DNA of 64,000 bases, taken from the NCBI GenBank assembly GCA_030698625.1, contig JAUYMS010000030.1, positions 20,016-84,015 of the forward strand. The letters are read 5' to 3'. Position numbers and translations under genes: made by a program. Below are positions 16 through 56,882 of the stretch, piece after piece; the first letter of the stretch is position 1, and every line of letters starts with the position of its first letter. The notes under the pieces are model-generated. The model saw only the letters and a program-made list of their open reading frames with translations, had not been told where the DNA came from and made no database searches. This DNA is from Candidatus Omnitrophota bacterium. GTDB taxonomy: Bacteria > Omnitrophota > Omnitrophia > Omnitrophales > Aquincolibacteriaceae.

Positions 16-3000
16 ATGATGCGTCAGGGAAAACTCGTGCGCGTAAGTTTTACCGATCCTGTTGTTATTCACGAGTTTGTGGACTATACGGATTCCGCAA
101 TTCAAGTGAATCGCAATTTTCAAGAGCGTGTCCGCAAGCTGGGTATTTCGATGCCGTCACATCCGGAGACGGACGAATACATTTACCGCAAGGACGTCGC
201 AACCATGATCCTGAGCGGGCTCAAAGGTGTGAACATCCCCGAAACCACGCTTGTAATGGCCGATCCGGACGAGCGGCTCGCGGAGCGTATCCGGAAAACA
301 AGAGCAGCCGATCCGGCGAATCTTGAAATCATAGAAGTCAGTCCGCGCGACTGGAGCATTCACGAAAAGGTCCGCCGCATCCTCGATGATTTTCTGAAGC
401 CGCCGGGCAGGGAAGAGGCGGTGCTGAAGCCGCACCACGGCAGCGGCGGTGTCGACGTAATGATCTTTGGACGGGAGAACCTGGAACTGGCGATCAATCA
501 CGCGCTGCGTCTTCTGCGATCGGGGAAGAACCTCATCCTTCAGGAAAGGATCCGCTCACCTTTGATACGGCATGAGGGTGTGCTTAAAGACTGGACCCTG
601 CGTGATTTTATTGCGCTTACGCCGGAGGAGGGGCGGACCGTCGTCAGCGACGTCCTGATCCGTTACGACCGGGCCGGCCGGCCCGTCAATATTACGCAAT
701 TCGCCGATGTGATGACGCGCGAAGACCTTGTTCTAAGCGAGATGGACGGCGACTTTGAGTGGAACAGAGAGAGGCTTGAGACCCTCAACCATGACCTGCG
801 AGAGACCGGCGAGCACATTTATGCACCTATAGCCCGGTTGATGAGGGAAGACGGTGTCCTCGGAGAAGACGAATATCCGACAGAATTCATGAGTGCCGAC
901 CTGATGTATGACGGCGGCAAGCTCTATGTCATTGAACTGAATAATGACAAGACGGGCGGGATGGGCTGGTTGAACGATCACCTGCGGCGCCGCGCCGAAG
1001 CCGGCGACAAAGATGCGGAGGCCCGAATCGGGGCCTCGGTGCGGGACTGGACCAATTATATGGTGCATCGTGCCGGTGTTTATAAGAGCACGATCCTCGG
1101 CATGGAGGCACAAACGGTTTCCGCCGCCGAGATTTATGCCGCTCTGCCCCGCGAACACCGCGACTATCTCGATATTATCGAGTTACTCGCAGAGGTGTCC
1201 GATTTCTTATATTTGCCGGTGAAGCCTAAACTTTCAGCGGTGCGCGAATGGGACGAAAAACGATTGAATCAGATGAAGCAAGCGCTCAGCCGCCTGATCG
1301 ACGGTAATTTCCGCAAGGATAACTTGAGGGAAATGCCCGCGAAGAGTCAGGCAAGACTGCTGGATTTGACGGCAAGGCTCGGCATAAAACTTGATCCTGC
1401 GGCTGTTCGAAGCGCGCTTGCACCGTCTCATGAAAGCGCGGCTGGATGGAGAGACGACAATACCGTCGAACTGAAAAGGCGCCGGGAACTCTTCGAGGAA
1501 ATTGAAGGGGCATTGCTGCGCTCGCCCTATGCGGAAAAACTGGCCGAGACTCTTCCCGGACGCAATATCGAAAAGACGACCGAGCAGATATTGGACGCCT
1601 TCCTCCGCACGCCGCGGCATCTGTTCGTCCCCGATCGTTTGCGCGAGCGTGCCTACGAGGACAAGGCTTTTCACGTCGGACTAGGCCAATCGATCTCACA
1701 GCCCAGCCTGATGGCGTTCGTTCTGGCTGTTTTAGACATTGATGAAAACAAGAAGGTCCTTGAGGTCGGCGCGGGGACCGGATGGTTTGCAGCATGGATG
1801 GGACGTCTCGCCAAAGAAGTCTATGCCGTCGAAAGAATTGAAGCCCTTACCGAACTCGCGCGCCAAAATATTGGAAATCTCGGCATCGAAAATGTGAGCG
1901 TTATCACCGGCGATGGACACAAGGGTCTGCCGGAAGAGGCGCCCTTCGACGCGATCGTGGTTTCGGCAAGTACGCCGAAAGTGCCCGACAACCTGCTCCG
2001 TCAGCTTTCGGCCGCCGGCGGCCGTATTGTGATTCCCTTAGAGAAAGGCAATGGACAGCAGGAGCTGACCCTGATTACGCGCTATGCTGACGAATACACA
2101 TACACACCGCTCCGGGAAGTGCGCTACGTGCCGCTGCTTGACGGAAACCGTGACGATTCTACCCGGTCCGAGCTGAGGGTTACGGTCGATCACATGGCCG
2201 CCAAGCTGCAGCGCGAGATTAGCAGCCGGGGCGGCCGTAACATTCGCGTGGAAATCTCACCTTCCCTCGGGGAGTGGCTTCGCCGCGATGCCGTTTTTCC
2301 GGCCGGCCTCTTCAACGGCTATGCGAGTTTTATCGAGGCCCTGAATTTTTCTCCCGACAACAAGGTGCGTATTATTTTTGCCAGCTGGAGTGACGAGCAT
2401 TTCAATGTCAGGATCGACGGCACATGGCGTTCCATTGAAGAAATGCGGGCTTTTGTCACGGATAAAAATATTGTGGTCCTTAACCTGAGGGAGGCTATGG
2501 CCGACCCCGACGGACTGCGTGATGACGCCTATCACGAGCTGGCCCACGTCAAAACATTCGAGCGTATTTATGACGTAGTGCAAACTGACGCGACCTATTA
2601 CGTGCTTGAGACCCTGGCGGATGCACTGCCTTATGAGGCGCTGTTGTCGAAAAACAAAACGGCCGCAAGAAAACACTTTAACCGTGTGATCCTGCCGCAA
2701 ATGCGCGGCTACACAGCAAAAGAATTACGCGGCGAAATGGCGGATCTCGCTACGGGCCGCTACCGGCACGCCGAGAAGCTCATCAAATTTCTGTTCTTCA
2801 CGAAGCGCTACGGGAAGGAGAAGGACTATGAGGCCTTCTTCGAACGCCTGCGGCAGCACTACCCTAAACGGGGAGTCGTGACCCGCTTGAAGACCGGTGC
2901 CGGCAAGATGGTCGACGAAATGAATAAGGCCCTCGACGACCTTGCGCAATTTGAGAAGACTGAAAAGACGATGGTCTACGACGCAATCGGCGCTTCCCGA

Positions 3001-6000
3001 AAAACCGCCGAGGCATTTTTAAAAGCCGTCAGCGGCCGCGGGCGTTCGGAACTGCGGGAGTCAACGCACGAGGATGCGTGGTTGACGCATCCGGCGGAAA
3101 CGGACTGGACGAAGCGTACTCCTTCGCAGATCGGTCTGTTGGTGCGTCTCATGCTGCAACGCGCCGAGATTAGCATAGACCGGTTAATGCAATTGCCTGC
3201 GGAAGAAGCCGAAAGGGTTTTCAGGGCCACGCCAATTGAGCCGCTCAGTAACGGCGAACCTTATACACTGGAGCCGCTGTATCGGGCCTATGACAATCTC
3301 CGCGAAGCCGAAGGCTCAACCCTCAGCACCTTACAGTTCCTGTTTTATAGAAACAGGATTCCGTTTAAGGGGCAGGAAAGCGCGGCACGGCGTCATATCC
3401 TGGATGAACACATCAGCGGCAATGAGCGGCAGTGGTTTTCAACGATTGCGCAGGAACTCGATTTCGAAGCATGGATGCATCTCTTCGACACCGACCAGGG
3501 CCAGGCCGCGCTTTTCCTGCTCCTGGCAAAACGCTACCCCGATTTTCCGAAGACCGCCTTGCTCGCCTTGATTAGTGAAAAGTTCATGGACTACGAAGAG
3601 CGCAACGGCATCGAGCCCTTTACGCGCGAGGTCTTGATGGGCGAGAGGACGGAAAAGGCCTTGGCAGCGTACTGGTCGGGCAATATTACGACACGACTCG
3701 AACAACAGGAAATCGAAGATTTGCGTGACACGATTGCCCGGCAAATCATTATTCGCATTCACAACTCCATTTGGGACAAGGCGCATAAGGTGAAGCGCGC
3801 CAGAGGAAAATCCGCTGCGCACAAAGCTGTCGAGATAGGCCGTCAGTGGTTTTCCGCGCGGCTAAATGACAGGGAGCATCCGGTGCCGCGTGATGTGCGC
3901 ACGATCTTTACTCGAATCAGAAAACATTACGACAAGCTGAGTCAGGTCAACTATCAGCGGCATGTGAAATTCCAGAACGGTAACGGGATGTCGCAGTTGA
4001 TGCTTCACCAGGTGGAAGGCATTTACTTTGCGCGCCATCAAAATGACGGCCGTGTCATCCTCGGTGACGAAATGGGCGTCGGTAAAACGGTGCAGTCCCT
4101 CATTGCCGCTGAGGATGCGGGTGCTGAGAGTGTGCTCATCGTGGCGCCGACCCGGTTACTGGCGAACTGGGAAAAAGAGATCAGGGACTGGTTGGGCAAG
4201 GACCAGAAAATTGCGGTTATTCGCGGGAGCGGGAAGGCGAAACTGCGTCAGATCGAAGAGGCCAAAGAGGCAGGTGCGCGGTTTATTTTGATCAATTACG
4301 AGGCCATGGCCAATGTCAAAGAGAGTAGGAATGGTGACGCCGTCGTTGATGCGCTTAATGACTGGGACTTTGATTTTCTGATTGCCGACGAAGTTCATTG
4401 GGTCAAGAACCCGAGCGCGGAGCGCACCAAGGGTTTCCGCAAGCTCAACAAGAAAAAGGCGAAGGCCATGTACCTCTCGGGAACTTCGGTGGTTAACGGT
4501 GTCGGCGATCTTTTTACGGCACTTAATGCGGTAGACCCCGAGCGTTTCCCCACGTTTAAGAAGTTCGTCGGAGAATTCACCGAAGACGGAAGGCGGGCGC
4601 GCGGAACCGTCTCGGACCCGCTGAAGTTTGCGCAGCTGAACGTCGAGCTCAACCAGAAATACTTCCTGCGCCGGACGCTCGAGCAGGTCATGGGGCATTT
4701 GCCGAAAAAACATGACCTCGAAGAGATTCATATCGGGCTGGATCCCGAGCAGATCGAAGTCATGGAGGATGTGGAGGAGCATAATGATCTCCTGCGCAAA
4801 GGGGAGCTCGAAATTGATGACGACGAAGAGCTGCCCGAAAACGGTAAAAGGGGACCCAGCCGCGGTTTCGGGCCCTATGAGATTCAAAAGCAGGTCTTGA
4901 TCGACCTCGAGCTTCTGAACGGCATGGATTACAAACATTCGGATCCGCCAAAGTACCGGGCCGCGCTTCAGAAAGTGCGTGAGGTCATCGCGAAGGGTGA
5001 CAGGATTTACATCACGAGCCGGTACCGCAAAGTGATTTATCGCCTGCGTGAGTTTCTCGCCGATGCCATCGGTGCAGATGCGATCAGCTATATCGTCAGC
5101 AGCGAACACGACGGCGTGGAGCAGGACGCGATTGTCCGCGAGTTCAACGAGAACCAAAAGAAGAAGGTCTTTCTTTCCACCTATGGAATCGGCGGTGAGG
5201 GATTGACTCTCAAAGCAAACCATGTGCTCTTTGTCGATCTGCCTTATACGCCCGCAAAGATGAATCAGGTTATCGGCCGCGTTTATCGCTATGGACAGGA
5301 GAAGGAAGTTTATGTCTACGCCCTCGTGGTTCCCGATACCGTTGATGAAGATATTTTGGATATCTTGAGCCGGAAGGAATCCCTTTTCGATCAGATTATT
5401 CGCGGCAAGCTCAATGTCGAAGATACGCGGAAGATGCTCAAGCACCTGGAAGAGCAGGAAGACAGACGTTCGGGGCGGAAGTCTCAGGCCCAGAAGGCGC
5501 GGGCGCGCATTGCCGACATCTACAATCTTCTCAACGAGGGTGAAAACGAACTCGCCCAACGGGAATGGGACGACTTCATGGAACTTTACGAAGAAGCCAT
5601 TGAAGACGTCGCGGCCACGGCGGCCACCCAAGCCCTTTACTCCTACATGCTGCAGGAACATGACGGCAATCGAATCGATCTCGGTTACAAGTCAGACGAT
5701 TATGAAAACCCGCGCTGGGGCTTTCTTGCCTCGGGGCCGTCGGTCGATCTCCGTGTCCTCAGACAAATGCAGGAGCACTTTTCGGAGCGGGGGGTTGCAG
5801 TAGAAGGAATTGATTACTACGAACTCGACTCGTCCGCCAAAGCCCGTGCCCTCGGACATGCCTGGCAGGTCACGAAATCATTCCCGAATCGGCCGAGCAG
5901 TCAGCTGACTTACGACCTCTATAACGATAACCTGCCTCAAAATCAGTTCGATTTTGTGAGCTCCTCAGAAATCGCCAGGCCGCGCCCGCGAATCAAAAAC

Positions 6001-9000
6001 AAGAAAGGCATCAGCATGAAACTTTGGGCGCTCTCCCAGATGGTGCAGTCCGCCACCGCAGGCGGCCTTGTTCTTATCTGGGATCATCACGGGGCTTTTT
6101 CGAAGAAGGCCATGGATTTTCTGTCGAACGAAGAGACCTTTGATCTGGAAATTATTAACACCGAGGGTTCGGCCATAAAGATTCCCGGTCTGGATGAGGC
6201 GACGCGCAACATGGTCGACGGGGTTACCTTTATTTTGGCGCGCAAGCGCAGTCACAAAACTTTCAGCGTTGAGGACCTGAAACGCATTCAGAAAAAATGG
6301 CCCGATGGTCTGCATATCGACCGGGATCAGCAGCTGGGTAGCAGGATTGCCAAGAGACGGCCGTTGAAAATGACGGACGAGGCACCGGATGACAAACCGC
6401 GCAGGGGAGTGCTCGATGTCATTACGCCCGGCGCTCCGGCGGGCCTCATCTCTTTGGTGCAGCGAGTGATCAAGAACAAAAAGCGCACCGGGGCCGACCA
6501 AAATATGGAGGAACGCCTCATCGAAGTGTTTGAAATTCTGCGCAGCGGTTCAAGAAAACCCGAAGACGTTCGGAAGCTTCATGAGCACCTTCGCAAGATT
6601 CTCGAACGCGGTCTGGAGCCCGACGGGATCAGGATCTTGCTCAGCCGCGTCAAGCGCTACAAGCGTTATCAGAATCGCAAGGACTTGAATGCGGTGATTG
6701 CCATGCTTGAAGGCACCCTCGCCAAGGCTGATGATGAGACCGAGCCCCGTGAAAAGGGCGAAAAGGAGACGGGAGGAAAAGGCGCCGGCGCAAGTAAACG
6801 CGGCCGTCGTCCGGGGAATGAACTGCCGAAAATTATTATCAATGACGGAGACGTGCTTCAAGCCCTGTCGTTACAGGGGATCATCTTCCGTAAGAGCTCC
6901 AAGTCGATTCGCACGGGTGTTCATGTGGAAGGCGCCACGGTATGGGTGGACCCTTACCTTATCGCTTCTCGCGTGCTCTCGCCGGAAGAACGGCAGTATA
7001 TCCTGCAGCTTCTCGTCTATATGCACCTCGAGCTGGTTCACCCCGACAATCCCGCGGCCGCGCTGCTCGTGGGTCTGCGGCATTTCCGCGAGCTCCTGGA
7101 CAAGGACGAGGTTCACGCTGCGCTCCAGAAAATGGAGCCGGATAAGACGAATATCTTTTACTTCTTTTTTGACAGCCATGATCTGCCGACCTGGCAGGAA
7201 GTGGAGCAAATCATCGCGGTGGACCCGTCAAGTGTGCCGCCTTACCGTGTGCAGGATATTCTTGGGCGCTTTACTCAATTTTTGCTGAAGCACCGTAGTT
7301 CCGAACACCTGCCGCCGGAATTGCCGGATGAGGGCGCGATTCCCGCGTTGCTCGTGAAGGCTGGTGAAATCGACGGAAAGCACGGCAAGAAAATAGCCGC
7401 CGCGCGTAAGACGCAACCCAAGAAGATGCGCTCGAAGCATCGTCAGGAAGAGAGTCTGCGCATCGTGGAAAGGGTTCTGGCGGCGCATCAGATTACCATT
7501 ACCGATTGGAATGACGATGCGGCGGCCGACGTCATTCGCGAGAGAATGCTCACCGGTCCGGTAAATCACGACAGCCTGTGGCGGTACTTTCACGAACCCC
7601 TGCTTCGCGTCAACCAAGACTGGCGTGCCAGTGAGGAAGCCAAGGAACGCGTGCAGACCGTCTATCGCGCGCTATTGCCGATGCAATTTAGAGCGGTTCT
7701 CAAAGCCGGCAGTTATCGATGGGATGAATCTCGGGAAAAGTTGAATGAGGCGTGGATGAACGAGAGGGATTACCTCACGCTCGGCGAGGAGATGAAACAG
7801 CAGAACGGCGACTATGTGGAAGATGCATTCTGGAAGCGGCGGGAACAGGATCTGGGAATTAAGAACGGGATGAACGAACGGCGCTGGGCCATGTCGGCTC
7901 GTGCAGGCATTCGCAAAGGGTTCAGTGAAGAGACCAACACCGAGATTATTCGGGGATTCCGGGCCTATTTGACCAATCCGCTTTCGCTCTTCGAAGAGAA
8001 TGAGGTGATCGCCCCGTATGCGGAGATCTCCGTGAAGGTCGCCGACATTCCGGGCGCGAAAGGTTCCCGCGTCAGCATCGCGTTTGAAGATCGGGAAGTT
8101 GCTTATCTCGGCACCGGTTACAGCGAAGACAATTTGATCGGGCGCTGGTATGTCGTCCAGAAATTCCCTTCGTCCGAAGTCGAGTATCAGGATAAAGATC
8201 TAAGGGCCATCGATGATATTCTTTTGGAGCTGAAATACCATTTTGAGAAAATAGATACACTGACGCGTTCTCAGCATCGCGAGTTTGTCCCGCATTACAG
8301 CTCACCCTTCTTTGCCGACTCGGCGCGCCTTATGTCGCAGTTGGACTCCAATGAACTCGGCCTGAACCGGGACCGCTTCGGCGGAGACGCCATGAAGATT
8401 GTTAATATCTTGATACCCATTCTCAAAGGCACGGGCACCTCGGACGAAGCGAAGACAGCGGCTCGGAGGTTTTTGACCGCGGTCGCCCCAAGCATGGCGG
8501 ACGAAATCGCCGAAGGCTCAATCGACAAGACGCTCCTTAGCAGAGCAATTCTCACGGAGAGGAAAATTCAGGTTGATTACGAAGACAAATACCGGGAGGG
8601 AGGTTTTTCGGACGAGGAACAGCAGCTGGAAACGGACAAAGTCAGGCACGCATCGATTATGGCGAGGCATGTGGCCAAACTCGCACTTACCGAACAGTCG
8701 CAACAAGCCCTTATCGCCGACTTTGTCGAGAAACACGCCGGCGATTTCCCCGAAGGACTAAAAGCAGAGGACTTACGGATAGACATTGTTTGGAACCAGA
8801 CACTTCGTGATGAAGGGATTCAGGAGCGCGCGGCGGTATTCGCCTCTCATTCTAATGTTCGCATCATACGCGATGACGAAGTCCTGGCGGTTCTCGGACT
8901 TAACTTTATGCCGGGCGACATGCAGGGCCGGTGGCATCTGAGCCAGAAGTTGTACAAGAACGGTAAGTTTGAATTCCCGAGAGGTAAGTTTATCCGCACG

Positions 9001-12000
9001 GGGCAGATGGATGCGGCAGAGCGAGAGGCGGGGATTGATCTCGGCCTATTGCGGCATCAGGGAGTGGTCATCGGACGGCCGAACTATAAATCACTCGTGC
9101 TGGTCGAGAATCCGGCTAAAGAGGGGCAGGTGTTTGTCCTGCGCATGACGACGCCCGGGAGTTTGTTCGGGACGGCCGCAGATCGTGAGCCCGTTACGAA
9201 GATTGACATCGCCCAAGATGCGGTTTACAGGATGCCGGACAGTGGAGTGGTGCTTCACGTCAAAGACGGCCTGATAACCGTTAAGGCCGAAGTCAAACCG
9301 GGCGCGTGGGAAAGTTACCACTGGATTTACCACGCCGTTTTTGACGCAGACGAGTGGCCGCAAATGGACTTCCCCGAATTTAGCGGCGGCGACTTTATTG
9401 TCGACGATGAGGTCCGCGACGTGGCCCTGCAGAAAGTCGAGCGATGGTCTCAGGATACGACTTATGCCGCCATTACGGCGGCGGATGTGGCGGACGGCCC
9501 GCTTTTCTTCCGGCCGAGCGCGGAGGCGGCCTACGGCCTTGCGGCCGTCAGGAACCCTTGGCTGGATGATTCAATTCTCATTTTTCAGACAGACATCGAC
9601 GGCCGCATGATCGCGCCCAGTCCCAAACCGATCCTCGGTGTGGATCTCGACGCGAATGAGACATGGCGGAGTCCTATTAGGGGTGTCGGACGTGATGGGA
9701 AGACACTGTACTTTTGGCTGCATCCGCAAACGGGTTCGATCTACTGGGCGCATTTTGAGATCAATAACGGGGCATCGTCGGCTGAACCGCCTTCAGATGG
9801 AGACGAGATCGTACACCCTGCTTATCCTTTCAAAGAGGGGCATTTGGAGCAGGCCGCGAATGCAAGGGCCGGTATTATTCAAATCCAAGATAAGGGAGGC
9901 CGGAGCGGTGTTCGTGACGTCTATGAAATTAGCCGCGATGTCTTGGCCCATGACGGGGTCATAGTCACTTACTATTCAACCATGAATCGCTATGCCGGTG
10001 TTAGTCACCTGCATGTCATCCAGAGCCGCGAAAATCCGAATCTGGTCTATATCTACGGTCTTGACGAAAATTTCCGTTATGTGCCTCGCGACGAGCGTGA
10101 CCACTTGCATGTTCTGGATCTCAGAAACCCCGATTCGCGTACCACCGATGCTGATCGCAGGGGAAACATCACATTCAAGGTCATTAATGCGGGTAATGCC
10201 CTGAAAATTATCCGTTCTCACAGTGATATGGAAGGCCAGAGAGCGCGCGGCGAAGAGGTTTATGCCGCCAAGTTCGTGCCGGATGATGAAGGCGACGACG
10301 ATTGGAAAACGATTCAGAGCATACTAAATGCAGCGGCCGTGATAAACGGCAATGCACAGTTCCCGCATTATGATTCGCCTGTCTTCGGGGAATTTGTAAG
10401 GAAAATCCTGCACGAACTGAGTCCCGAGGAACTGGGCAGCCGTGATGGAAGCACGCACCGCAGATTCCACGAGCGCGGTAAAAACCTGATCGAGCCGTTG
10501 CTCGTGATGGCGGAGAGCACGACGGCGCCGGCTAGGGTGAGAGACACGGCGAAAAAAATGCTCATCGCGTTTGCGCCCGAGATGCGCCGTCAGATTCTTG
10601 CGGGTAATATCGACCGCCAGCAGCTCATGCGTGAGCTCATCGGCGAAAAAACAGAATATGTCGGACTCGAAAGAAATCTACAGGCCGAAGGATCCACAAG
10701 GGAAAAGCAGGCCCTCGAAAACATGCGGTTACCCAATGCGAGGTTCGCCTCGATTCTCGCGCGATACAATTCCGCCCTTAAGCTCGACGCAAAGGCCCGC
10801 GACTTACTCCTCGACGACTTTATGGAAAAACACGGACAAGGTCTTGACCGAGAAACTCTGAGGGTCGAGGTCGCACAGGAGCAGGAAATAGAAGATTACA
10901 CATCCGGCGGCGGCTTTCTCGACCATGTAAGCGATTTGGTTTCACGCATCCGCATCATTGACGGCGAGGAGCCGCTCGCCGAACTTGGTGTCATGTACAG
11001 CGAAGACGATATGCAGGGTGAGTGGCGCTTGCTGAAGGATGCCGGCCGGGAAAGTGTCCCGACTGGCAGCTACTTATTTCCCGAAGGCGAATTCAAAAAA
11101 AATAAGTTGATGCCCAAGAATGCGACGGAGATCAATCCCGAGGACTGGAATGACGGCGCGATTGTCTTCCAACAGTTGGGAAGCGCCTATGCTCCCTCGC
11201 CGATTGCTCTCGTGCCTTCCTTCGTAGATCCGAATAAGATTCTCGTCCTTCCCGTTACGAGCCATTTCAGGACATTTAAAGAAACAGCACTCAGAGAACC
11301 GCTCGGCGTGCTGGACCTGAGCAACCCTTCGGAGGACTACCTTAAGGTTTCGTTCTGGCCCGATCGCCAGGACCTTCAGGGGAGGGAAACCCTGCTGCGC
11401 GTCATTGACGGCGGTAAGGTGGAAGTCGTGCAGTTAAACGGCGAAGCGGTCCCCACGATGTCCCGTGCGGCCTTCGGCGCGGATGATTGGACGCAGGTGC
11501 CCATGGCCGAAGTGGTGGGCGGCACGTTCAAACGCGGTCCAAAATTGCAGTCGAAGGACCCCAGGAAATTTGCTTATTTGGCCCGTAAGAAGTTTGAGAA
11601 CGGGCGGTCCCTGATGATTCGTGAGCCGGAGGATACCTATCTCGTGGCAGGTCAGAATCCTTGGGATGCAAAGTCGGTCATCGTTTTCCGTACGGATGCG
11701 GAAGGCCACATGCTCGACGAAATGGACGGCCGGCCGATTCTGGCCTTTTCTACGATCAAGGCAGGCGTTCACCAAGTCGGAGACATCCATTTTCAGTTTG
11801 ATGACTTCGTGGTTGATGGTCTCATGGCAATGCGGAAGGGCGAAGGCGAAGACGAAGAAACAGCGGCCTATGAAGCGACTTTTGTTCCCGGCCCGGAACC
11901 GTATCCTTTCTTAGGCGGAAATTTCGCACCCAAAGCAGGTCAAGAACTCGAAGGGATTGAAATTACCGGCGGCGGCATCACGGAAGAATATGAGATCAGC

Positions 12001-15000
12001 GGCGAGGTGCTCGGCGGGGACGGCGCCGTGGTTACCTATTACAGCAGCCACTCGAGTTACCGCGGCGTTTCTCACCTGCATTTCATCCGCAGCCGCAAGA
12101 ATCCGGACTGGGTTTATGCCTATGGCCTGGACGGCAATTTTCGCTACAGCCAGTGGCGGAACACTCCGCTCATAGCAATCAATCTGAACAAGCGAATTAG
12201 CTCATACGCTCGCGGAGAGCATATGGGCAACATCGAAGTCAAACCCAACTCTTCGGCAGACGGTATTGTGGTCCATCGCCGTAACCAGATGAACGTTGAG
12301 ACCGCTAAAGATGAAAACGGAGAGGTTCAGATTCTGGACGTGAGTTTCGACAGGCGGCGCGCGGAAGTCGTTTTCGCCGCCGAATTTCATCCTGATGGCG
12401 CCGAGTCCGAAGGGCGTCTCAACACGTTCAAAGCGCGCTTCATGGCGGATGAAGGATGGTTCGCGTATCCTTACGTGCACGGCCGCCTCAAAAAAACAAG
12501 TGTCGATGCCCAAGACGGTATTCAGTTCAGCCGGCGGAATGGGAGTTCCACGAGCAAGATTTCGCGTGAAGCACTGGCCGGTAAGGGTGTTCTTATCGCG
12601 CAATATAAATATACAAAGGCCGAATCCGAAGAGCTTGTTTACTATCATCTGATGTTAGACCCCGAGAATTCGAAGAGGCTTTATATCTATGAACTGGACG
12701 GAGACGGGCGGGCCGTGCCGGCCGACCCGGAGCCGCTTGCGATACTGAACCTGTCGGACTCGCAGTTTGAATGGAGTAATAAGCACAGTAACTTGTCGGT
12801 AGGAGCAAATTACGGCGAGCCTGGGTTTCTCCTTAGTGTTAATCACAACAAGGGACCCTTCGGTGAAGTGTACCGCGCCGAATTCATCGCCGATCCGCCG
12901 GCAGAAAGAAGTGTAAGCGAAACTTATCCGGCTTACCCGTTTGCCGAAGGTGCGTTTAGGACTCTTGCGACCGGCGAAGGCATGACCCGGGGGCATAGCG
13001 ATGTCTTCCAGACTGCAGAGATTGACCGAAGCGTTCTTGCCGCCGAGGGTGTGGTCGCGACCCACTACGTGCCATACGGACCTCACCGCGGAGTTTCACA
13101 TCTTCATATTTTCCAGGACCGCAGCAACCCCGATCTCATCTATGTGTATGGCTTGGATGAAAAATTCCATTATGGCCAGTGGAGGTCAGGCCCGCTGGCA
13201 GTTCTTAACCTGGCCGATCCCGCCCTGAATGTGGGCGAGGGCGTGCGCCGCGGGAATGTCTGGGTGCAGAAGTCAGCTGACAAGAACAAGGTTCTGATCA
13301 CCCATAAAAATCCGCGCTACCCTAGGCGGCCCGACCGCGATGAAGGAATCTACCGGGTTCAATATGTCTCGCGGGAGCAGGCGAAGTATCCCTATGCCGG
13401 AGGACGTCTCGTAAGACCTGCCGGAAATGAGGCGACTGCCGGAATCACCTTCGGCCTTAAAGCGGCCAAAGGCTCGGCGGCCTATGAATTGAGTCCGGAG
13501 TCGCTGAGCGGCACGGGTGTGTTGGTGGCAGAATACGTGCGCAGCCCGAGCTGGTCACAGGAAATTTTCCATCATCATCTATTCCTGGATCCTCTTGATC
13601 CTCGAAAGCTTCTTCTCTATCGCCTCGACGAAGAGGGCCGCGCGACCGGTGAGCATCAAACGCCAGTCACGGTCCTGGACCTGGATGAAGAGTTCCGCTG
13701 GTCGACCGGTACCTTTATCCTCATGAATGATAAGAACGGAAAGGGATTGTCTCTAACCCGTCGCAAGGGTCCGTTCGATAAGGTTCACCGCGCTCGCTTT
13801 GTGCCGGACGGCGGAGAGGCAGTACCGGACAAGGCGCTTGAGAGATCAAATCTCGTTCGCAACGGTGTCTTCAAGCGCCTAACGCAATTGAGGAGATTTA
13901 AGTTCGGGGAATTTACGGATCATGCGGCATCGTCGAAGTTCCGATGGACGGCCAGCGTAGGCCGTCCTCAATTGGATGCCGGGCAGGCCCTGTTGGTACT
14001 TGAGAGCAAACTGGGGTCGGAACGAACATCTCTGGTTGCGGTGAGGCACTCGTCCCGGGTAGGGGTGGTTCAGATTTACCGGCTTGGGAATGACGATCGC
14101 ATTGTTGATGCCCGGGCCCAATTGGTAACCGAACTGAATGCCGAAGAGTCCGAGAGCTTGGGGCTGTTCACCTTTACAGTTAAATCGAACGGCGCGGTTG
14201 AGGTCAGCAAGGCCGACGGACGCGTCGTTGCCTACTCCGCAGAATTTATTCCGGGCGAATCGGCTGCGAGCGGCGATGACCGCCTGCTTGAAGAGGCCCT
14301 CACTTATGTCGGAGGCCACTACCCCGATTACGACTACCTTTTCGGCGTGTTCTCTTACGACGATCTCGAATGGCCCTCGGCTTTTAAGCCCTTCTTCGAA
14401 ATCCTTAAGAACCCTGATGCCTCTGCCCAAGCCAAAGAATTCGTGCGGCGTATCTTTTTAGCGCGCGCGCCTTCGCTCTATGAGGCGATTGTGAGCGGCG
14501 AAATTTTGGGGATGGATGAAGACGAATTACTCAAGATATTTAAGCAGGAAGAAGCGCTCTGGGATTTTCAGCAGAAATTCGACGGAAAGGGCGGAGAGAT
14601 TCATACGGCTTATTACGCGATTGAGGAGGCGCAAAAGGAGAAAGGGCTTGAAGGCGTTGAGATTTCGGCGGTGCGCATGGCGGGATTGCTCGCCGATAGC
14701 GAGCCGCTTGTCCCGCGCGGGCCTTCGGCCGGATTCAGCACGGCCACCCAAGCGGCCCTTAAGAACGACTTCTTCGATCGCTACGGGGCCCTGTTTGACG
14801 GGTTAGAACGCAAAGACCTCTATATCGATTATGAATTTGACGTCCCGGCTTACGAGAATCTTAAAATCGCACGCATCATCATGCGGCGCGGAATAGACGG
14901 TCCCGAACTGGCGCATCTCGGCACGGGGCGTACCTTCGACAATGTCCAAGGGGTATGGCATCTGAATCATGAGCTCGTTAAGGCGTCGGTGCCCGGGGAG

Positions 15001-18000
15001 TATATTTTCTTCCGGTCCGAAGAACCCCTTGAGGGCGAGCGTGCACCGGACGGCCGGGACCTGATCCTGCCGCTTGCGGCATTCAGACAAACGGTGGGCG
15101 AGGAAGAGAAAATTACCGGCGGTGTCTTTATCATCGGAGACCGGTTCGGCTCAATTCCTCACGGTGATGCCATTGCCGTGCAACACCCGGATCACCCGCA
15201 TCTGATTTTTATTTTCAATAATCTCGGCAGAGAAGGGAACATTATCGACGAGTCTTACCGTCAGCCTCAGCCGGCAGCGATCCTTGATCTACTCGACCCG
15301 CAACCGGTCGAGGTCGAAGGGACCCGATACAGCGTGACTCCCGACGGCCGCATCCGGATCGGGAATGCCAATCTGGATAAAAGAGGCTCCGCATCAGTTT
15401 TTGGCCTGGTCGGGGGCTCACTCGTGTGGTCATCGAAGCCCGGGCAGAATGAGGCGACAGGGGCATCCGACGATATAGAAGTGCCTCTGGATCCGCAGAC
15501 GACAGCGCTTAGAGAATTGCTCGGAGGCGATCTGCTTCACAAGATATTGCGGCCGGATTACAAAGGAGCGGACATCCGCCAAGCCGTCAGGAAACTCAAA
15601 AAGGATAAATTCTGGTGGCCGTTCGACCAAAACGCTTCGCCGTATGCACGCCTTGTCACCGAACGCATTTATGCCGCGACGGTTCCCGCGCTCGCGGACC
15701 GCGTTCTGTCAGGTGATCTTGATAAAGAGACTTACAATGCGGAACTTGACAGGGATCTCGGCGGCAAAGACTTCTCCAGGCTTCGCAGGATGTCGATGCG
15801 GGACAATGACGGCAAGGCGCGGGAATTGAGCCGTCCGGATAAGGAATGGCTGATCGCAGATTTCTTTAGCAGACACGCTGATGCTTTGGACGAGGACCTC
15901 GGGCCCGAAGCCCTTGATCTCCGGATTAAAGAGACCGATAGCGAAACAGATTTCCTTATTGTGAGACGGTATAAGGTGCAGGGTGAAACGGAAGCCCTGG
16001 CGCGGCTCGGCACCGGGTTCGAATTCGGCAACTTGCAGGGCCGGTGGTATATAGAAGGCGGCGCCCTTCGGGGAGCCTTCAAGACAGGGAAGCACTTTGG
16101 TTCCATCGGTGACGGTGCGACAACCGTAACCCTAGAGCCCTCGGTCCTGGATACCGGCGGCGTCTACCTTGACAGTGCCCATCATGATGTCAGCCGGGGT
16201 TTTGTATTGCCCGTTGTCTTGAGGCGCGACATAAACAGGCCCACACTGGTGCACGCCTACATGCTGAGTCCGCAGGGAAGTTATGGCGGTATCAAGTCGG
16301 GTTGGGAATATTCGCTGGCGGATATCGATCTCACAAAAACGGGCTCGGAATACAGGGTCGAAGAAACTCGCATCACCGTTCTTGCCGGCGGGCGGCTCCA
16401 GATTTCACTCACCGAAAAGAGCAATCTCAGTCACGGTGTCTATGCCGCGGAATTTTCTCCGGTGCGTCGTGAATCAAACGCACCGGATTTGGCTGTCGTC
16501 CACGATATTATTGCCGCCTACGGGCTTCATCGCTACCTCGGATCCGATCAATTCGGTTCCTGGGCGCGGCCGCATATATTGCATGGCGGGCTTGATGCGA
16601 AACGTTGGCATGACAGTTTCAAGCCGCTGCTCGGGATCGTCAATAACGCCGAAGCCGACCCCGAAGCCCGCAGGCTGGCGCAAAGAGTCCTGGTGGCCCT
16701 CACGCCGCGCCTGCGTGATCGCATTTATCCCGATGGGGCTGCAGAACAGGCAGCGCTGAATGTTCCGGCGGCGACAGAGCTAACCAAGGACGATATCTTC
16801 AATTGGGCTCAGGGCAAAGCCGATCCTGCAGTTGGAGCGACCCTGGTCATGCCCGTTACTTATTATGACGAAAAGAAGGGCGGGGCCGACGTCATTCCGC
16901 GGGCCCGCGTCGAGGTAAAATCGGCCGGTACGGGCAAGAGTTTCGCCGTCCCCATCGACGATCTCAGATTGAAACGGAAAGAATTGAAGAATGCCACTTT
17001 AGCCGTGATCGAAGACGCGAACCTCGGCAAGGTGCTCGCCATTTTTGCGCCGGACGATTACGAGTCCTGGCGATTCGGAAATTACACGGTCACCCCTCTG
17101 GCAGTTTTTCCGGTGACGGCAAAACACAACGGTTTCCGGCAGCTGGCCGTACCTTTTCTCGTGGATATCGATAAGCTCAGCCGCGGGGAACTCGAGGAAG
17201 TGCGCGTGCCCGGTCATCCCTGGAGCTATATTAAGACTGCGGCCCGTGTGGAACCGCCTTCCGGCAAGATGGAGTCAACCACGGCGAGAATCATCTTGAA
17301 GTCGACCGCATTTGGGGTCCTTGTCCAGATGGGATTTACGCCGACCGCCGCGGACCTCGAAAAGATCGATCTCGAGAGCGGTGAGCGAAACATGGACGTT
17401 TATGTGGTGATCAGGCAGCATCCCAACCGCGGGCCCATGGTACAAGTCTTTCGTTTGAAGGATTATGATCCCGCGAAGCCCGCTGAATACGGCGAGCCGA
17501 TCGTGACCTATGCGTACGTCGACGAGAAATGGACTCAGATTATCCCCGCAGTGAATGACATCATTGATGCCGCCTATGGCCGTAAGGACTTGGTCGAAAC
17601 CGCGGATGCCTTCGAACAAAAGGTCGCGATCAATCAGGATGGTCGCAGGGCCTCGATTACCATCACGACCGGAACGCACGGTAAGAACAAAAAAGCATTC
17701 TCCTTTACCTTCTCAAAAGAGGAAATAGATGAATTTAAGCTGGCAGAGAATCCGGCAATCGTCCGCCTCAAGGTCGATCGCGATTACGGCCCCTATATCG
17801 CCGTCTCGGCCAGGGTGAACGGGGAAGAGCGTTTGATCGGTAATAGTGTCGAGGTCAAGAATGAGGCGCAGAAAACACGTCGCGTCGATTTTGACAAGGA
17901 GGCCTTCGCCGACTTCCTTAATAGTGCAAACAATATTCACGGTGAACCCATCGCGCCGCGAATTTATACCCATGCCCATGAATTAACGGAACAAAACAGG

Positions 18001-21000
18001 TACATGGTGGATGTCCTGAACCGCGCCCAGGTCCGCAGTCTGGACGAACATGGGATTAAGCGGCCGGTCTTTATTCCCAGGCCGGATGCGAAGTACGGAT
18101 GGGTCTTTGAGACGCATGATGTGGATACGTACAACAAAGACCCCGGCAAGAAACCGGAAGTCGTTTTAGCACGGCGGCCGGGCCATACAACATTGATGAA
18201 AGTTAACAGAGTGAGTGCTCCTGCTGAGCCCGAAGCGAAGCGGGATACAGAGGGCTCCATTCTCGATGAAGCCACGCTTCTTTCAGAGCTCATGAGCGAA
18301 TCCCACCTGCAGATGTTTCACGAGCAGGACGCCATGTATTGGAACCGGAATTATGGTGAAGCCGAAGACATCGCGCGCTGGGCAGAACGTGCCGGCGAAT
18401 GGAAAGACCGGTGGATTCACAGTGACCCGGTCCGCGAGGCGTCGCTGCAGGCCAGTATCTACGGCAAGCTCAAATTAAGTTCGGATAGCCAGAAACTTTT
18501 GATTCGGGATTTTCTTGATAAACACGGGGATCAATTTGCAATCCCGCTCGGTGCGCAGGACCTCTGGATCCGCATCTTTGCCTTCGACAAGCATTATCCC
18601 GATGGGGAGGTTCGTCAGGCCTCCCGTATTGCCGTGGCGCATAAGGACACCGGCCGAATCCTGGCGACGCTCGGGAATTTCCACGAACCCGGCGACCTGC
18701 AGGGGTATTGGCGGCTTGAGCCGTGGAGCAACCCGCCGGTGCCCGCGGAGCGATTTAAACAGCACGGCTTCAAGGAACGCGACTATGTGCGAGACGCCGA
18801 CGGCACAGTCAGAATGCCGCACATCAATGTCCCGGCCTTACTCGCGACAAGGGTTGCCAATGAACAGCCGGGCGTCACCAGCGGTTGGATGCTGACGCGG
18901 CGTCAGAGGGATTCAAAACACGTTCTCATCGCGAAGGGAAGGAGCCATGAGCCCGGCGAGATATTAGGTGTGCTCGATCTCACCCGGCCCGGTTCGTCGG
19001 TGACGCTGGATCATGCGACCTTTACCGTGGAGTCCAATGAAAAAGTCGCCGTCGTGCAGGCGCCTGATCCCGCCCTTGCTGCCATAGCCACGGTGCTCGG
19101 AAGTGTCAAGGTCAAGGGCTCGTCGACGCTTTCCGAAGGCTCTGCTACCGTGCGTTATGTCACGGACGAATACGGCGCCCGGCGGTTTCGACACGCATTC
19201 TATGACCAGCGCGGCAGCGCAACGGATCAAAGTGACTGGGACCGGATCCATGAACCCTTAGTCCGCGTTCTTGAGGATCCGGCTGCGTCCGAAACGGCCA
19301 AACGCGTTGTCCTGCGAATCTACCTTGCGCTTGTGCCGGATCTCCGGGAAATGATGGAGTCCGGAACGATCGATCGCGCGCGCTTGCGCGAGGAACTCCG
19401 CAATGAGCACAAGATCTGGGAGCATATCGAAGCGAAAATCGAACGCGGTCACGCCAAAGCCCGAGGGGAACATAATTATCCGAAGGATTTTGGGCCGGGA
19501 TTCAAAGCAAAACGAATCCCCGCAGGCGTTTCGATCCGGCGTCTGACGCCCGTTAAGTGGGCGGCGATGCTCGCGAACGAATATAAAATCGAAGAGCTTG
19601 AAACGGGCGACGAGGAGCTCCTCAAGAAAGATTTCCTGACTCGGCACGGCACGGATTTTGGAGATGTTCTCGACAGCGGCGATACCAAGATTCGCATGAG
19701 ATTTTCAGGGGTGGAAGTTGTGTTGGCAGAGGCAGAGGAGACCGTCATTGCAACATTGGGAGACGGCTATCATCCGAAGGAACTTCGGGGTACCTGGTCT
19801 ATTGACAATGAATTTAAGTTTGATGCCAGTCTGCATCAACTAAAGAAGATCCTCTATAAGGGGGCCATGGTGCGCATGGAAGACGAGATCTGGAATCGCG
19901 AGATTTTCGGCGAGATCGTTCGCGGGGATCTCTACGTCTTAGCCGGCAAGGCGAAATGGGAGACGGTGCATGAGCCCATGCTGGAAATACTCCGGGACGA
20001 AAAGGCATCGGCCGAAACCAGGCGTGTCATCAAATTGATTTATCTGGCGATCACACCTTCTCTTCACGCCGAGATCCTCGGCGGGGAACTGTGGAATCAT
20101 AAAGCGGCGATTCAAAATGAACTGGAGAAGGAAGTAGAACGGGCGGGGCAGGAGTATCGGGCAGCGAAGGCGGAGCAGGAGTTCCCCGACATGACCCTAA
20201 CGCGGCAGGCTTCGGCCTATGCCAGAGTCGGCCAGAATAGAATTTTTGTGGGCGCGGATGAAGAAGCGTTGATCGATGACTTCTGGCAGCAGCATAGCAG
20301 TGACCTCCCTCCCTGGTTTGAGAGGGAAAGGCTGAAGCTGATTGCGACACAAATCCATATAGATAAGATTCATGAGCTCATGCCTCATGGCGAGAGGCTT
20401 TATGTCACGATTGCTCATACCGCCGATGACGGTAAGCAGACAACCCTCGCACGGTTGGGCACGAGTTTTGCGCCCAATAATCTGGTGGGGCAGTGGAGCA
20501 TCTTGTGGGAAAACATTGTAATGCCGGCGCTCTCGCGCGAAGCTCTTAATTTTGAGGACTACAAACAACTCGGTATGGGCAGCGACCGCGCAGAGATTAT
20601 TGTTGATGCACAAACGCTGCTGCAAAGTGGTGGTTTGTTTATAGACCGGTCTTCTCAAAGCGAAAGATACCGCAATCTCGCCTTAATGCCTGGGCCTTCG
20701 AGTAAAAACGTACTGCTTGTTATCGCCGTTGACGATAAAGCGCCCGATGGAGATCAGCTGCCATTAGGCACGCTGCGTCTCGACCAGCCGGGCTTTAGCC
20801 GGGTCGAGAGGAATGAGACGCAGTTCGAAGTGCTCGAAAACGGTCAAGTCGTCGTCAGACCCGGGGTCTTTGATGGTTCCATCCCCGAGGGCTATATCCG
20901 GCACAATCCGGTCTATCAATTGGCCTCTAAAAAACGCTCCGAATTACGTTCGTCGATACAGGTCGGTAATCCCCTCTATCCCGGAAAACTCGAGATGTTC

Positions 21001-24000
21001 GGTGATGCGATTATGTTTCAATGGCCGGCCGAAGGCAGTGAAGACGACGCGCTTGTCCTGATGGGAGGGAAACATAGGGAGGATCAACTGATTTTGAACG
21101 GCGTGCTGATACGGCCCGGGACGAAGATCCAGGAAATGCAGGGGACTATGGCTCTTGAGCATGTCATGGGTGGTCTCGTGAAAGTAACCCGCGAGCACTA
21201 TGCGGCCAGCGAATACCCGCTCGAATTGCACAATGTTCAGAATCCTTATATTCTGGCAGTTGCCAACCAGCTGTTCGAACCAGGCACGCTCGAGATTGTA
21301 CCAGAGATGATGAGTGCCGAGGAAGTTCTTGAAAACGAAGGCCGCCCGGCGCGCTGGCGCCCGCTGGATGACATCGATTTTTACAGCGAGTTCGGACCGG
21401 TTACGGTTTATACTGACGATTTTTTGAATGCCAAAGAATTAGCGGAATTCCAGCTAACGAAAAAAGACGGCCGCTACGAAGTGACGGGGCCGGCGCCGGA
21501 GGGGATGCGCGTTCATGTCAGCGGGAACATCCTGCGCGTCACGGATCCGGCGACCAACCGCAAGATTCGCGTGCTTGCGCTTGAACGTCCGTTCAAGCTT
21601 CGTGGTAAATTGCGCGAAAGTTTCGGTCTCGCTCGCTCAGAATTAAGGGCGGATAACAACGGTCGAGTCGTTATGACAACTTCGCTTGAAGGCTTTGAGC
21701 CGGATGAAACAGCGCTCGGCGCCGAGGCAAGAGCTCACCTCAAGAGTTTTCGTAAGAGCGACGCCGTCGGCCGCGGCGATATGGCGCGGCTCTTTTTCGA
21801 CTTCCTGCTGCAGGATGAGATCGACGTTGAACTTCTCGACATCGGTTATGAAAGAGCACTAAAGCGCTATATGAAGGACAGGATTACTCCTCAGATTCGA
21901 AACGGACTCTTGATAAAAGTGCCTATCGCGGGTTTTATGGGAGATGAAGCCAGAAATCTACTGACGGCGTTGCTCATGGGCCGTGTGAGTGCGCGCGAAG
22001 TGCTCACGATCGCTATCCTTGAAGGTGTGCGTATCCCCGATGTCTTTCCCGACACCGAGGCGTTTACGGCTGAGCAGAAAGAGAAACAGCGGGACAGGGC
22101 ACAGAATTTCAGCGAGCGGTATTCGGCCCTGCTCAGCGGCAAAGAGGAGATTAGCATTTCAGTAAAGCTTCCGCCCGAAGATGAAGTGGACTCGCTTTTC
22201 GGGGAAATAAGCCGCCTCGGACGAGACCTATCTGAGATCCATATTTTTGCCGACCGTGACCTCGGAGACTTGAGGGAGTTCTGGCGGGCTTCCCGCAAAG
22301 GAACCCCGAAACCCCGTCCGTCTTATCTGACCCCGGTCGAGGCCGCCCTCATAGTTAGAATGCCGCAGCGGACTTTTGAGTCTTATCTTTATCACCTGGA
22401 ATCGCAGCAAATCGAATCGATGGACAGTTTTATTCAGAAGCACCTGGTTGCGACGGGTCATATTAAATTGTCCGATATCGAAGCGAAGCTTGATACCGCG
22501 CCGAAAGACTTGACCGAAATCATAGAGGATGCACGCAGAGGCGATGTGTTCGCTTTCTTTGACCTGATTCAGCGGCTTCACGTTCAGGTCATTGCTTTCA
22601 AGAAAATCAAGACAGGGGTGGATGTCGCGGAAAAGCAGAAGCGTGCGCTTCCGTCCCTCGCAAGGATTCTAGATAAACATATTACCGCCTTCGAGGGCTA
22701 TGATGAAAAATTCCGTGCCGGCTTCGGCCGGCTCGTCGGGTATCTCGACGAGTTGCTGGCCTTGCCGGCGCTCAAGCGGGCTGTCCTTGAGGATGCGTTT
22801 TATCGGGCGCGCATGATCGAGCTCATCGAGACATTGTTCCGCAATGATGATCTGGCCACGGCACAAGACCGTGCCCGGCTCCTGCAAGCCTTGGCGCATC
22901 TCACCACGGCCGAAGATAATACGCATATCTTCATTATGGAAGAGATGGAGCTTGAGATGCTGGGCGAAGGCCGCGAGATCGAAGGAGCGATAGACGCCTA
23001 TATCACTGCTCTTCGAGAACTCAGTGCCCGCGATCCAAAGATCTTGAGATTTCTGAAACTACGCATTCAATATCTTTCAATGAAGGAGCACAAACAGGAC
23101 GCCGGAAATGAGGATGCGGCGATTGCAGCACGGCGCCGTCGTGTTGCGAAGACGCAGCTGGATGCGTACCAAACCGTTCTCGGACGCATTGACGAGAGTT
23201 TGCTTCGCGCCGTGACACGTGACCCCGTCAAGGAGAACGCACTTGACGAGTTCCTTGCGCTGGGAGAAGGGTCCTGGAAAAAGAAAGCGACCCTTTTAGC
23301 GGAGATTCAAAAAGACCCTGAGCTGAAAAGGAGCTCAAGGGTGATTGATGAGGCGTTTGTGGGTAGGATACGCCAACAAATCGAAAAGCTCTATGCCGCC
23401 GAAGACATCAGCCAGGATCAGCGCGACGAAAAACTCCATGCCGCGGAGGCTTATCGCCGGGCATTAAAGCTCGCTGAGCCGCAGGGTGCATCTGCGGTTG
23501 CCTCAAGTGCGGTGTATTTTACGCAGGCTGAAGCAGCTGCTCACTTGGTTCTTGAGATTGAAAACGAAGTGAGGCACCTCTTTGATGAAGACCCCAACCG
23601 CAACCCGATAGAAATTTATCAGGCGGCCCGCGACGTCTATGCTGACTCAAAGGCGTTTCTCGGGAGTGAACAACGAATCTATTTCGAGACGGCCCTTGTC
23701 ATTCTGCTCAGAGAGCTCTATACGATTCAACGTCTGCGGTGGCGGACTTATGAACTTGGGCTCCTCAAGGATCTTAAAGACCTCGGTTTTTCTTCGACGT
23801 CCGGGGTCACCAATGAAGATCCCAAACAAGCCGAATTCATGCGAAATCTTCTCGGGTTCCTCCCGGGGCAGTATCAGGTCATGTTTTACCCGGGTTCGGT
23901 TGAAGTCACCATGGACGAAAGTTCCTTTAAACGCGCATGGAAACTGACGGGCAACGGTTTCGGGCGCGAAGTCGAGAACCTGAGCCAGGTTGAAATTGCT

Positions 24001-29295: not shown

Positions 29296-29366
29296 ATCGT
29301 GCCAAAACATTGAAAGCTGGTGACACCAAAAAGAGCGACAGTCCTATAGACGGTGCCAAGGCCACG

Positions 29367-29919: not shown

Positions 29920-30076
29920 AAAGAAAGTTTACACAAGTGTGTGCCTATTGTCAATACACTCACTTGGGGACAAAAGGGCGGCGCGGCAAGTTCTTTTACG
30001 ACAACGTCTTGTGATGAAAGTAATGCGGTACCGCATACTAGTTTTTGGGGGGTGTAAGTTGTATAATTAAGACGAG

Positions 30077-56832: not shown

Positions 56833-56882
56833 TCTAACTGCGACCCCTCTTCCCCGAATTGCCGGCTTTATACGTATTAAGG

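Follow-up and report, generated by a model that had tools for sequence, protein, structure and literature searches.

Bacteria of the phylum Omnitrophota are known for very long proteins. In these proteins internal repeats that have diverged at the nucleotide level are the rule, and 15% of the long proteins are dark to Pfam (10.64898/2026.06.07.730766). Omnitrophota giant proteins have been proposed to mediate adhesion to prey, and type II/IV-like secretion genes have been noted near the genes that encode them (2023 preprint, 10.1101/2023.11.21.568195). The polyvalent proteins of phages, prophages, plasmids and conjugative elements combine unrelated effector or enzymatic domains, typically with an SNF2 helicase and a methylase among them, in a single open reading frame (ORF) and are delivered with the DNA to the recipient cell; for their autoprocessing, metallopeptidases inside the proteins have been proposed (Iyer et al. 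2017, PMC5512222). Giant adhesins and toxins, which include Ig-like/Big/cadherin-like arrays and RTX adhesins, are Cys-poor and carry long arrays of beta-sandwiches of ~100-150 amino acids (aa) whose number varies between homologues. Here we describe a giant ORF in a 64,000-nucleotide (nt) stretch of DNA, referred to as the window, from a Candidatus Omnitrophota bacterium of the family Aquincolibacteriaceae (assembly GCA_030698625.1, contig JAUYMS010000030.1, positions 20,016 to 84,015 of the forward strand). Sequence comparison indicates that two previously undescribed, very narrow domain families, A and B, form an old repeat array within this giant multi-domain bacterial protein.

The giant ORF encodes 9,203 aa in a single reading frame without a stop codon. 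The frame is open back to nt 1 of the window, with the residues ARGGI ahead of the first methionine. Hence the true start and N-terminus may lie upstream, and 9,203 aa is a lower bound. The GC content is ~0.55 and is even along the whole gene. Pfam recognises three things in the protein, namely a protein-L-isoaspartate O-methyltransferase (PCMT) domain, a SNF2 helicase and TPR repeats, which together cover 8.8% of it. Like the Omnitrophota giant proteins of the two preprints cited above, it is a multi-enzyme polypeptide with nucleotide-diverged internal domain repeats and a large Pfam-dark fraction, and its only named relatives, P0001 and P0004, come from the same phylum. Unlike most of them it is without transmembrane (TM) helices or a signal peptide and thus belongs to the 6-8% 'globular' minority. 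It contains a SNF2 helicase where the giant proteins of 10.1101/2023.11.21.568195 have a divergent SecA DEAD helicase, and it lacks their numerous TM regions. Its repeated domains belong to no Pfam family, and its length is ~9 thousand amino acids (kaa) compared with 30-147 kaa. Like polyvalent proteins (PMC5512222), it holds unrelated enzymatic domains in one ORF (PCMT, SNF2 + Helicase_C, TPR), has HExxH motifs that could provide autoprocessing, and has a SNF2 block nearest to the phage family phrog_62. Unlike them it sits in a chromosomal context (36 kb downstream seen), has no relatives in IMG/VR or PLSDB, and has no LPD, MuF, ArdC-N or zincin-like MPTase match in Pfam, even at an expectation value (E) <=1 for the unannotated cassettes. 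Its central 4,450-aa A/B array is without counterpart in the polyvalent proteins.

The repetition is evident when the protein is compared with itself. Self-BLAST of 150-aa windows gave 189 significant off-diagonal matches (69 after collapsing), with E down to 1.9e-26, and all of them fall within aa ~2500-6900. An earlier note on this DNA, made from the sequence alone, had described an array of about 4,500 residues made of diverged repeat modules. Both its extent (Table 1) and its internal periodicity are borne out, the latter by self-BLAST and by hidden Markov models (HMMs). Each A module, except where Table 1 lists otherwise, precedes one or more B-family beta domains, and four canonical B domains stand in tandem alone. 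The units of duplication exceed one module, since aa 2759-3425 matches aa 3450-4129 and aa 3952-4293 matches aa 4286-4598 in self-BLAST. A2-beta-beta-B1 aligns end to end with A3-beta-beta-B2 at 32% identity, which shows that an A+beta+beta+B unit was duplicated once; the pair B2-B3 matches the pair B4-B5, so that a B-B pair was also duplicated once. The supermodules proposed in the note are present, but the unit is an A module followed by one or more B-like domains, and what was duplicated is larger than single modules. Tandem or dispersed nucleotide repeats are absent from the array region (Tandem Repeats Finder and a direct-repeat search), which indicates that the duplications are old. The note had argued for repeats that diverged at the protein level instead of recent nucleotide duplications, and for an old, selected scaffold instead of an assembly artefact. 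An old, selected array that is no artefact agrees with the lack of nucleotide repeats; the word 'scaffold' goes further and is taken up below as a proposal. A third repeat family was searched for in aa 5606-6039, a stretch of the array that matches neither A nor B, and none was found. The modules are mildly acidic (net charge -11 to +4, one outlier -16), and on these values the idea that the array is a strongly acidic DNA mimic was rejected.

Module A is ~190 aa long. Iterated HMMs recovered eight full copies and one partial N-terminal copy, with the consensus EPL..L.D..AS..AK..V.RIY.A..P.L / VR.AS..AR / LI.DF...HG / DL.I / LA.LGTG..P.NLQG.W. It agrees with the LGxG...NLQGxW domain, of which the note had counted eight copies, and with the conserved IxDF...HG...DLRI and HEPL helix segments described there. 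Across the eight-copy alignment the invariant residues are P36, F114, A169, L171, G172, G182 and W184, and no invariant residue is of a catalytic type. A structure model of A with its beta domain has a predicted local distance difference test (pLDDT) score of 64.5 and a predicted template modelling (pTM) score of 0.60, and it runs from five helices through a three-strand sheet to the beta domain. In the fold predicted for module A, at moderate confidence, five helices form a bundle, after which comes a three-stranded sheet closing with LAxLGxG..NLQGxW. A Foldseek search of the PDB with the A+beta model returned nothing below E 0.07.

Module B is ~150 aa long and has the consensus YPF..G.L ... 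GVSHLH ... NP..VY.YGLD..FRY ... VY.AEF.PD in five clear copies. The residues invariant in the five-copy alignment are, in order, Y, P, G, G, L, G, Y, H, Y, L, D and L. GVSHLH is present in three of the five (nt 9997, 12064 and 13090). These are the three VSHLH...YGLDxxFRY copies noticed earlier, whose positions of ~9960, ~12030 and ~13045 lie within about 40 nt of the respective EIS starts; two diverged canonical copies and about nine distant ones had been missed. Across the three GVSHLH copies the 28-residue GVSHLH...FRY hairpin is 68% identical, compared with 30% in the rest of the domain, which suggests a maintained surface that would be a ligand site or else an inter-domain contact. The beta regions that follow the A modules appear to be about nine distant homologues of B, an assignment that is secure for the group and tentative for each domain individually. 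In profile-profile comparison (hhalign) a first set of these B-like domains matches B with 95.6% probability (E 1.3e-8) and a second set with 82.6% (E 1e-5). Scored singly they range from E 1e-5 (aa 5348-5490) to ~0.04, in the same register throughout.

The structure model of module B (pLDDT 86.2, pTM 0.85) is an 11-strand all-beta domain, and a beta-sandwich fold is predicted with confidence. Two separate models reached the same structural matches, which supports a common B fold. The matches are a weak, generic likeness to domain I of class II fusogens (EFF-1, HAP2, flavivirus E, Fusexin1), in which ~95 residues of ~450-residue targets align at 5-14% identity. Homology of B to fusexin domain I, with a role of the array in membrane fusion, would be one way to read this. 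Such scores and identities fall below what would indicate homology and describe a beta-sandwich in general. Domains II and III, a fusion loop and a TM anchor are absent as well, and fusogens are Cys-rich ectodomains with disulfides, whereas the giant protein has no Cys at all. We regard a fusogen relationship as scarcely credible.

Table 1. Features of the giant ORF, with positions in the window and in the encoded protein
Feature	Window (nt)	Protein (aa)	Strand	Basis or remark
Giant ORF	16..27627	9,203 aa	+	single reading frame without stop
PCMT domain	1537..2148	508-711	+	NF001453 204 bits, NCBIfam equivalog cut-off 188; Pfam aa 521-710
RSELR site	2164..2178	717	+	
HExxH motif, HELAH	2533..2547	840	+	
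RSELR opening cassette with SNF2 core and array	3043..3057	1010-1014	+	positional equivalent in P0001 at aa 704
SNF2-family helicase (SNF2-rel_dom + Helicase_C)	4006..5295	1331-1760	+	Pfam PF00176 2.9e-28; same RSELR-delimited cassette as array
Repeat array	7573..20931	2520-6972	+	4,453 aa; A, B and B-like modules make up 82.7% of it
Module A copy 1	7573..8157	2520-2714	+	HMM
Module A copy 2	8383..8943	2790-2976	+	HMM
B-like domain after A2	8944..9351	2977-3112	+	single-sequence hhalign E 7e-3; supported as part of group
Second B-like domain after A2	9349..9819	3112-3268	+	less well supported; hhalign 82.6% as a group
Module B copy 1, GVSHLH type	9823..10290	3270-3425	+	HMM
Module A copy 3	10471..11034	3486-3673	+	HMM
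B-like domain after A3	11035..11511	3674-3832	+	hhalign E 2.4e-4
Second B-like domain after A3	11509..11901	3832-3962	+	weaker support
Module B copy 2, GVSHLH type	11902..12402	3963-4129	+	HMM
Module B copy 3, diverged	12466..12900	4151-4295	+	self-BLAST, HMM
Module B copy 4, GVSHLH type	12934..13380	4307-4455	+	HMM; modelled, pLDDT 86.2
Module B copy 5, diverged	13387..13815	4458-4600	+	self-BLAST, HMM
B-like domain after B copy 5	13816..14295	4601-4760	+	hhalign E 3.7e-4
Module A copy 4	14365..14967	4784-4984	+	HMM
B-like domain after A4	14968..15435	4985-5140	+	hhalign E 4e-3
Module A copy 5	15595..16056	5194-5347	+	HMM; modelled jointly with next beta domain
B-like domain after A5, best-supported distant copy	16057..16485	5348-5490	+	hhalign 81.8%, E 1.1e-5; HMM iE 0.009
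Partial module A, N-terminal helices only	16600..16830	5529-5605	+	HMM
Stretch matching neither A nor B, without internal repeats	16831..18132	5606-6039	+	
Module A copy 6	18133..18720	6040-6235	+	HMM
B-like domain after A6	18721..19215	6236-6400	+	weak, E 0.03 alone
Module A copy 7	19231..19806	6406-6597	+	HMM
Module A copy 8	19951..20505	6646-6830	+	HMM
B-like domain after A8	20506..20931	6831-6972	+	hhalign E 8.5e-3
RSELR directly after array	20935..20949	6974-6978	+	array ends two residues before
RSELR site	21634..21648	7207	+	
HExxH motif, HEQGH	24133..24147	8040	+	
RSELR site	24748..24762	8245	+	
TPR repeats	25912..26433	~8633-8806	+	Pfam
RSELR site	27037..27051	9008	+	

The array modules have no recognised relatives among characterised domains. 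Pfam, NCBIfam, PHROGs and PADLOC all left aa ~2400 to ~7200 unmatched, and no enzyme family scored in this stretch. The Ig-like/Big, cadherin, FN3, SH3 and propeller-blade profiles of these collections give no match in aa 2400-7200, and sequence-profile searches of the PDB with array modules gave E values of 0.12 or higher. The earlier note could assign neither module to a known family, and this agrees with the searches just listed and with the lack of a convincing structural match. Neither A nor B maps to a familiar domain of established function, since what the B beta-sandwich shares with class II fusogen domain I is a weak and generic likeness.

The two families are also very rare. When 1.84 billion representative proteins were searched exhaustively (hmmsearch) with an A+B profile of 315 positions, five sequences, P0001 to P0005, scored at E<=0.001. 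P0001 (MBI2167792.1, 3,751 aa, E 1e-25) and P0004 (MBP9866096.1, a 1,297-aa fragment) are annotated as Candidatus Omnitrophota and come from metagenome-assembled genomes. P0002 and P0003 are short fragments of 138 aa and 76 aa. P0005, an oomycete protein matched in 22 stretches at E 9e-4, was judged spurious. A pattern scan of GTDB species genomes with B gave no match, and a scan of the same genomes with the region that precedes SNF2 recovered P0001's contig alone. Pattern scans of JGI metagenomes (pre-SNF2 region, A) and of IMG/VR (A, B, pre-SNF2 region) gave no match, and neither did tblastn of the array against PLSDB plasmids. Word-indexed homologue searches with the supermodule, the pre-SNF2 region and a 13-row module A alignment found nothing, and these negatives weigh little because P0001 was missed even with its own fragments in the query. 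None of the protein collections searched yielded the giant protein itself. The only public contig with neighbouring genes, Logan contig SRR13727534_41607 (11.8 kb), begins ~50 nt past the stop of the giant gene (window 27679 onward).

The two named relatives help to define what is constant in the family. Residues 687-2059 of P0001 are collinear with aa 993-2400 of the giant protein at 32% identity, through the pre-SNF2 region, SNF2 and a downstream region that is common to these two proteins only. After the SNF2 core P0001 has just two or three A+beta units and no canonical B, compared with eight A modules in the giant protein. The C-terminal ~190 residues of P0001 weakly resemble the C-terminus of the giant protein (E 0.003), and the P0001 locus is chromosomal too. 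P0004, which fills a whole 3,891-nt contig (GCA_018063085.1, JAGOQZ010000206.1), represents part of a further giant protein from Omnitrophota. Its A parts (ALTP helices and an LGNGF.P.NLEG.W hairpin) are interleaved not with B sandwiches but with helix-hairpin-helix (HhH) domains that resemble the alpha-CTD of RpoA. The anatomy of P0001 and P0004 together indicates that A is the constant element and that the partner domain and the copy number vary. The architecture of P0004 fits a role of A as a connector that would present different partner domains.

The conserved residues of the modules are mainly structural and the number of A modules varies between homologues (8 vs 2-3). The array is therefore read as a non-catalytic, expandable scaffold or binding platform. 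In this reading, to which we give a probability of about 0.55, the array forms the middle, non-enzymatic stretch of a soluble multi-domain giant protein, in which it would act as an extensible spacer and multivalent binding platform on the SNF2 block. Two lineage-restricted domain families would form beads on a string. The A connectors would give spacing and orientation, and the B sandwiches would supply binding surfaces, in particular the GVSHLH...NP..VY.YGLD..FRY hairpin of three copies. Growth of the array came through segmental duplication of multi-domain units, and its copy number varies freely next to a conserved SNF2 core. The scaffold or binding role, as well as any ligand, is what we infer from this anatomy.

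Several points weigh against this reading. A metal or catalytic site could be made up of H58 and D75, which all five canonical B copies share, although H58 is lost once the distant copy at aa 5348-5490 joins the alignment and D75 is replaced by Ser in that copy. A binding partner and a structural role of the array are both putative, and the lack of conserved catalytic residues was judged on 5-8 paralogues only. Most of the single-sequence scores of the B-like domains are weak. The model of module A is moderately confident and its beta domain is poorly resolved. The orphan status of the modules comes from the sequence-profile and PDB searches described above, and a remote known relative is conceivable.

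The protein that surrounds the array has two properties that make it a more surprising lead than the array itself, namely that it is free of Cys and that a recurrent RSELR pentapeptide partitions it. None of the 9,203 residues is Cys, compared with 97 of 9822 (0.99%) in 29 neighbouring ORFs (P~2e-40), and translation of this DNA in its two alternative frames would give 302 and 364 Cys. The relatives are also depleted (P0001 2/3751, P0004 0/1297), which points to strong selection against Cys as a family trait. RSELR occurs six times, compared with 0.025 occurrences expected, and every relaxed form of the pattern returns the same six sites. All of them lie between domain blocks, with linker-like flanks. 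A DNA-level palindrome or repeat was rejected as the origin of the motif, since the codons differ at every site. P0001 has five RSE[LV]R sites, one of them at the opening of the SNF2 block; the motif precedes each A+beta region, and other sequence intervenes between the A+beta units and the next motif. No decayed RSELR-like sites were found inside the array, and aa 1010-6974, which hold SNF2 and the array, are uninterrupted by the motif. The array would thus stay covalently joined to the SNF2 helicase block. RSELR splits the protein into cassettes and is a candidate motif for processing or docking. Among the top-ranked papers of a literature search, the term of which was swamped by unrelated matches, none had RSELR in this linker sense; the 2026 preprint on Omnitrophota long proteins (10.64898/2026.06.07.730766) says nothing of absent cysteine or of RSELR as a linker motif.

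These properties bear on a different view of the protein, as a delivered polyprotein that would reach prey or host cells whole, by export or injection, and would be cut at the RSELR linkers to give separate effectors. The array would then serve for packaging or translocation, as presentation filler, or as the part that binds the target cell. A composition free of Cys that extends to the relatives suits delivery, and a pentapeptide kept in linkers by varying codons and retained in P0001 would suit cleavage. Cysteine is not known from HlyA, CyaA and similar large substrates of type I secretion. The SNF2 block is closest to the large phage helicase family phrog_62 (PHROGs, E 1.7e-88). Autoprocessing by internal metallopeptidases, as proposed for polyvalent proteins (PMC5512222), would find a counterpart in the two HExxH motifs at aa 840 and 8040. 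Each of them lies in a cassette that is flanked by RSELR sites and has no other annotation, and these cassettes are possible zincin-like peptidases; however, they match no peptidase family in Pfam or among PDB sequences, and no Pfam signature domain of polyvalent proteins is present. Nor is there a sign of a route out of the cell. No signal peptide is evident in the giant ORF, the start of which may lie upstream of the window. No TM segment was found, as no 19-residue window has a Kyte-Doolittle mean >1.6 (maximum 1.49). RTX GGxGxD repeats are limited to one isolated GG.G.D match in 9,203 aa and are absent from P0001, and no secretion-system genes adjoin the giant gene. The context is chromosomal, relatives are absent from viral contigs and plasmids, and with no RSELR site inside it the array would not be released on its own. 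On balance we consider delivery unlikely.

A more specific version of this view, to which we give a little less credence again, holds that the protein is a Cys-free cassette polyprotein of an ultra-small predatory or episymbiotic bacterium. It would leave the cell, or enter a partner cell, as an unfolded chain and be cut or docked at RSELR, which would free PCMT, zincin-like, SNF2 and TPR blocks. The A/B array would represent a new class of scaffold, for translocation or target binding, kept on the SNF2 motor. If this were true, the polyvalent proteins of phages and plasmids would have a cellular counterpart that is encoded on a chromosome and has a defined processing motif.

Avoidance of Cys is compatible with export in general, and a beta-sandwich fold together with a copy number that differs between homologues also brings surface adhesins to mind. 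The B sandwiches would in that case act like Ig-like repeats and attach an ultra-small Omnitrophota cell to its host or prey, in line with the adhesion to prey proposed for Omnitrophota giant proteins (10.1101/2023.11.21.568195). TM or signal-peptide features are present in 92-94% of long Omnitrophota proteins (10.64898/2026.06.07.730766) but not in this one, which also lacks RTX repeats and, among its Pfam matches, a dockerin element. Unlike in giant adhesins and toxins, the beta domains alternate with ~190-aa helical connectors and match no known repeat family by sequence, including the Ig-like, cadherin and Big families of Pfam. The array is fused to cytoplasmic-type enzymes, without an RSELR break in the case of the SNF2 helicase, which needs ATP and DNA. 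An adhesin-like function is distinctly improbable on these grounds.

The genes that flank the giant gene are of chromosomal housekeeping types (ROK kinase, ExbBD, DsbD, AhpC, Lgt, Maf and Tad pilins). A BrnT/BrnA-like toxin-antitoxin pair lies just downstream of the giant gene (window ~29360-29920; Logan contig 1689-2241, minus strand), as do two genes of the staphylococcal-nuclease (SNase) family (window 30077-30538 and 32434-33120). At the P0001 locus, AbiEi/AbiEii and a DUF1016/SNase gene lie on the upstream side. The two loci may share a defence or mobile neighbourhood. Further away, 23-30 kb downstream of the giant gene, are a PilT/T2SSE-type ATPase (window 50900-52021) and three TadE/TadG-like pilin genes (window 54604-57368).

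Such a neighbourhood raises the possibility that the protein is a DNA-associated sensor or defence machine, with the array as the variable recognition region of an SNF2-based nucleic-acid surveillance protein comparable to the large helicases of Zorya, DISARM and Dpd. Toxin-antitoxin and SNase genes lie near both the giant and the P0001 loci, and P0004 intersperses A parts with HhH domains of a DNA-binding type. The SNF2 block scores best against the ZorD (3.5e-46), DpdE and DrmD models of PADLOC and NCBIfam. All these scores are far below the curated cut-offs (ZorD 77 bits vs 1500), and they thus reflect generic SNF2 similarity. Partner genes of Zorya, DISARM and Dpd are absent from the visible context, PADLOC has no match in the array, and the mildly acidic charge of the modules is not that of DNA-binding domains. 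A defence function is very doubtful.

Besides its equivalog, the PCMT domain near the N-terminus has matches to methyltransferases from ATP-grasp peptide maturase systems and FxLD systems. Upstream of it, aa 124-185 (nt ~385-570) weakly resemble the ATP-grasp enzyme DcsG (E 0.033), and there is no Pfam match in this segment. An ATP-grasp and O-methyltransferase pair, similar to those of graspetide maturation, may be present at the N-terminus.

Giant, mostly unannotated Omnitrophota proteins are a recognised knowledge gap. In the protein described here the dark region resolves into a grammar of connectors and beta-sandwiches. Two new protein domain families, one of them with a confident fold model, account for about half of the giant protein, and so far only a few Omnitrophota sequences, out of about 15 billion proteins, are known to contain them. 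The Cys-free composition and the RSELR motif are concrete, testable handles on the protein as a whole. If the scaffold reading is right, the array would be a tractable system for how ultra-small bacteria use very long soluble proteins.

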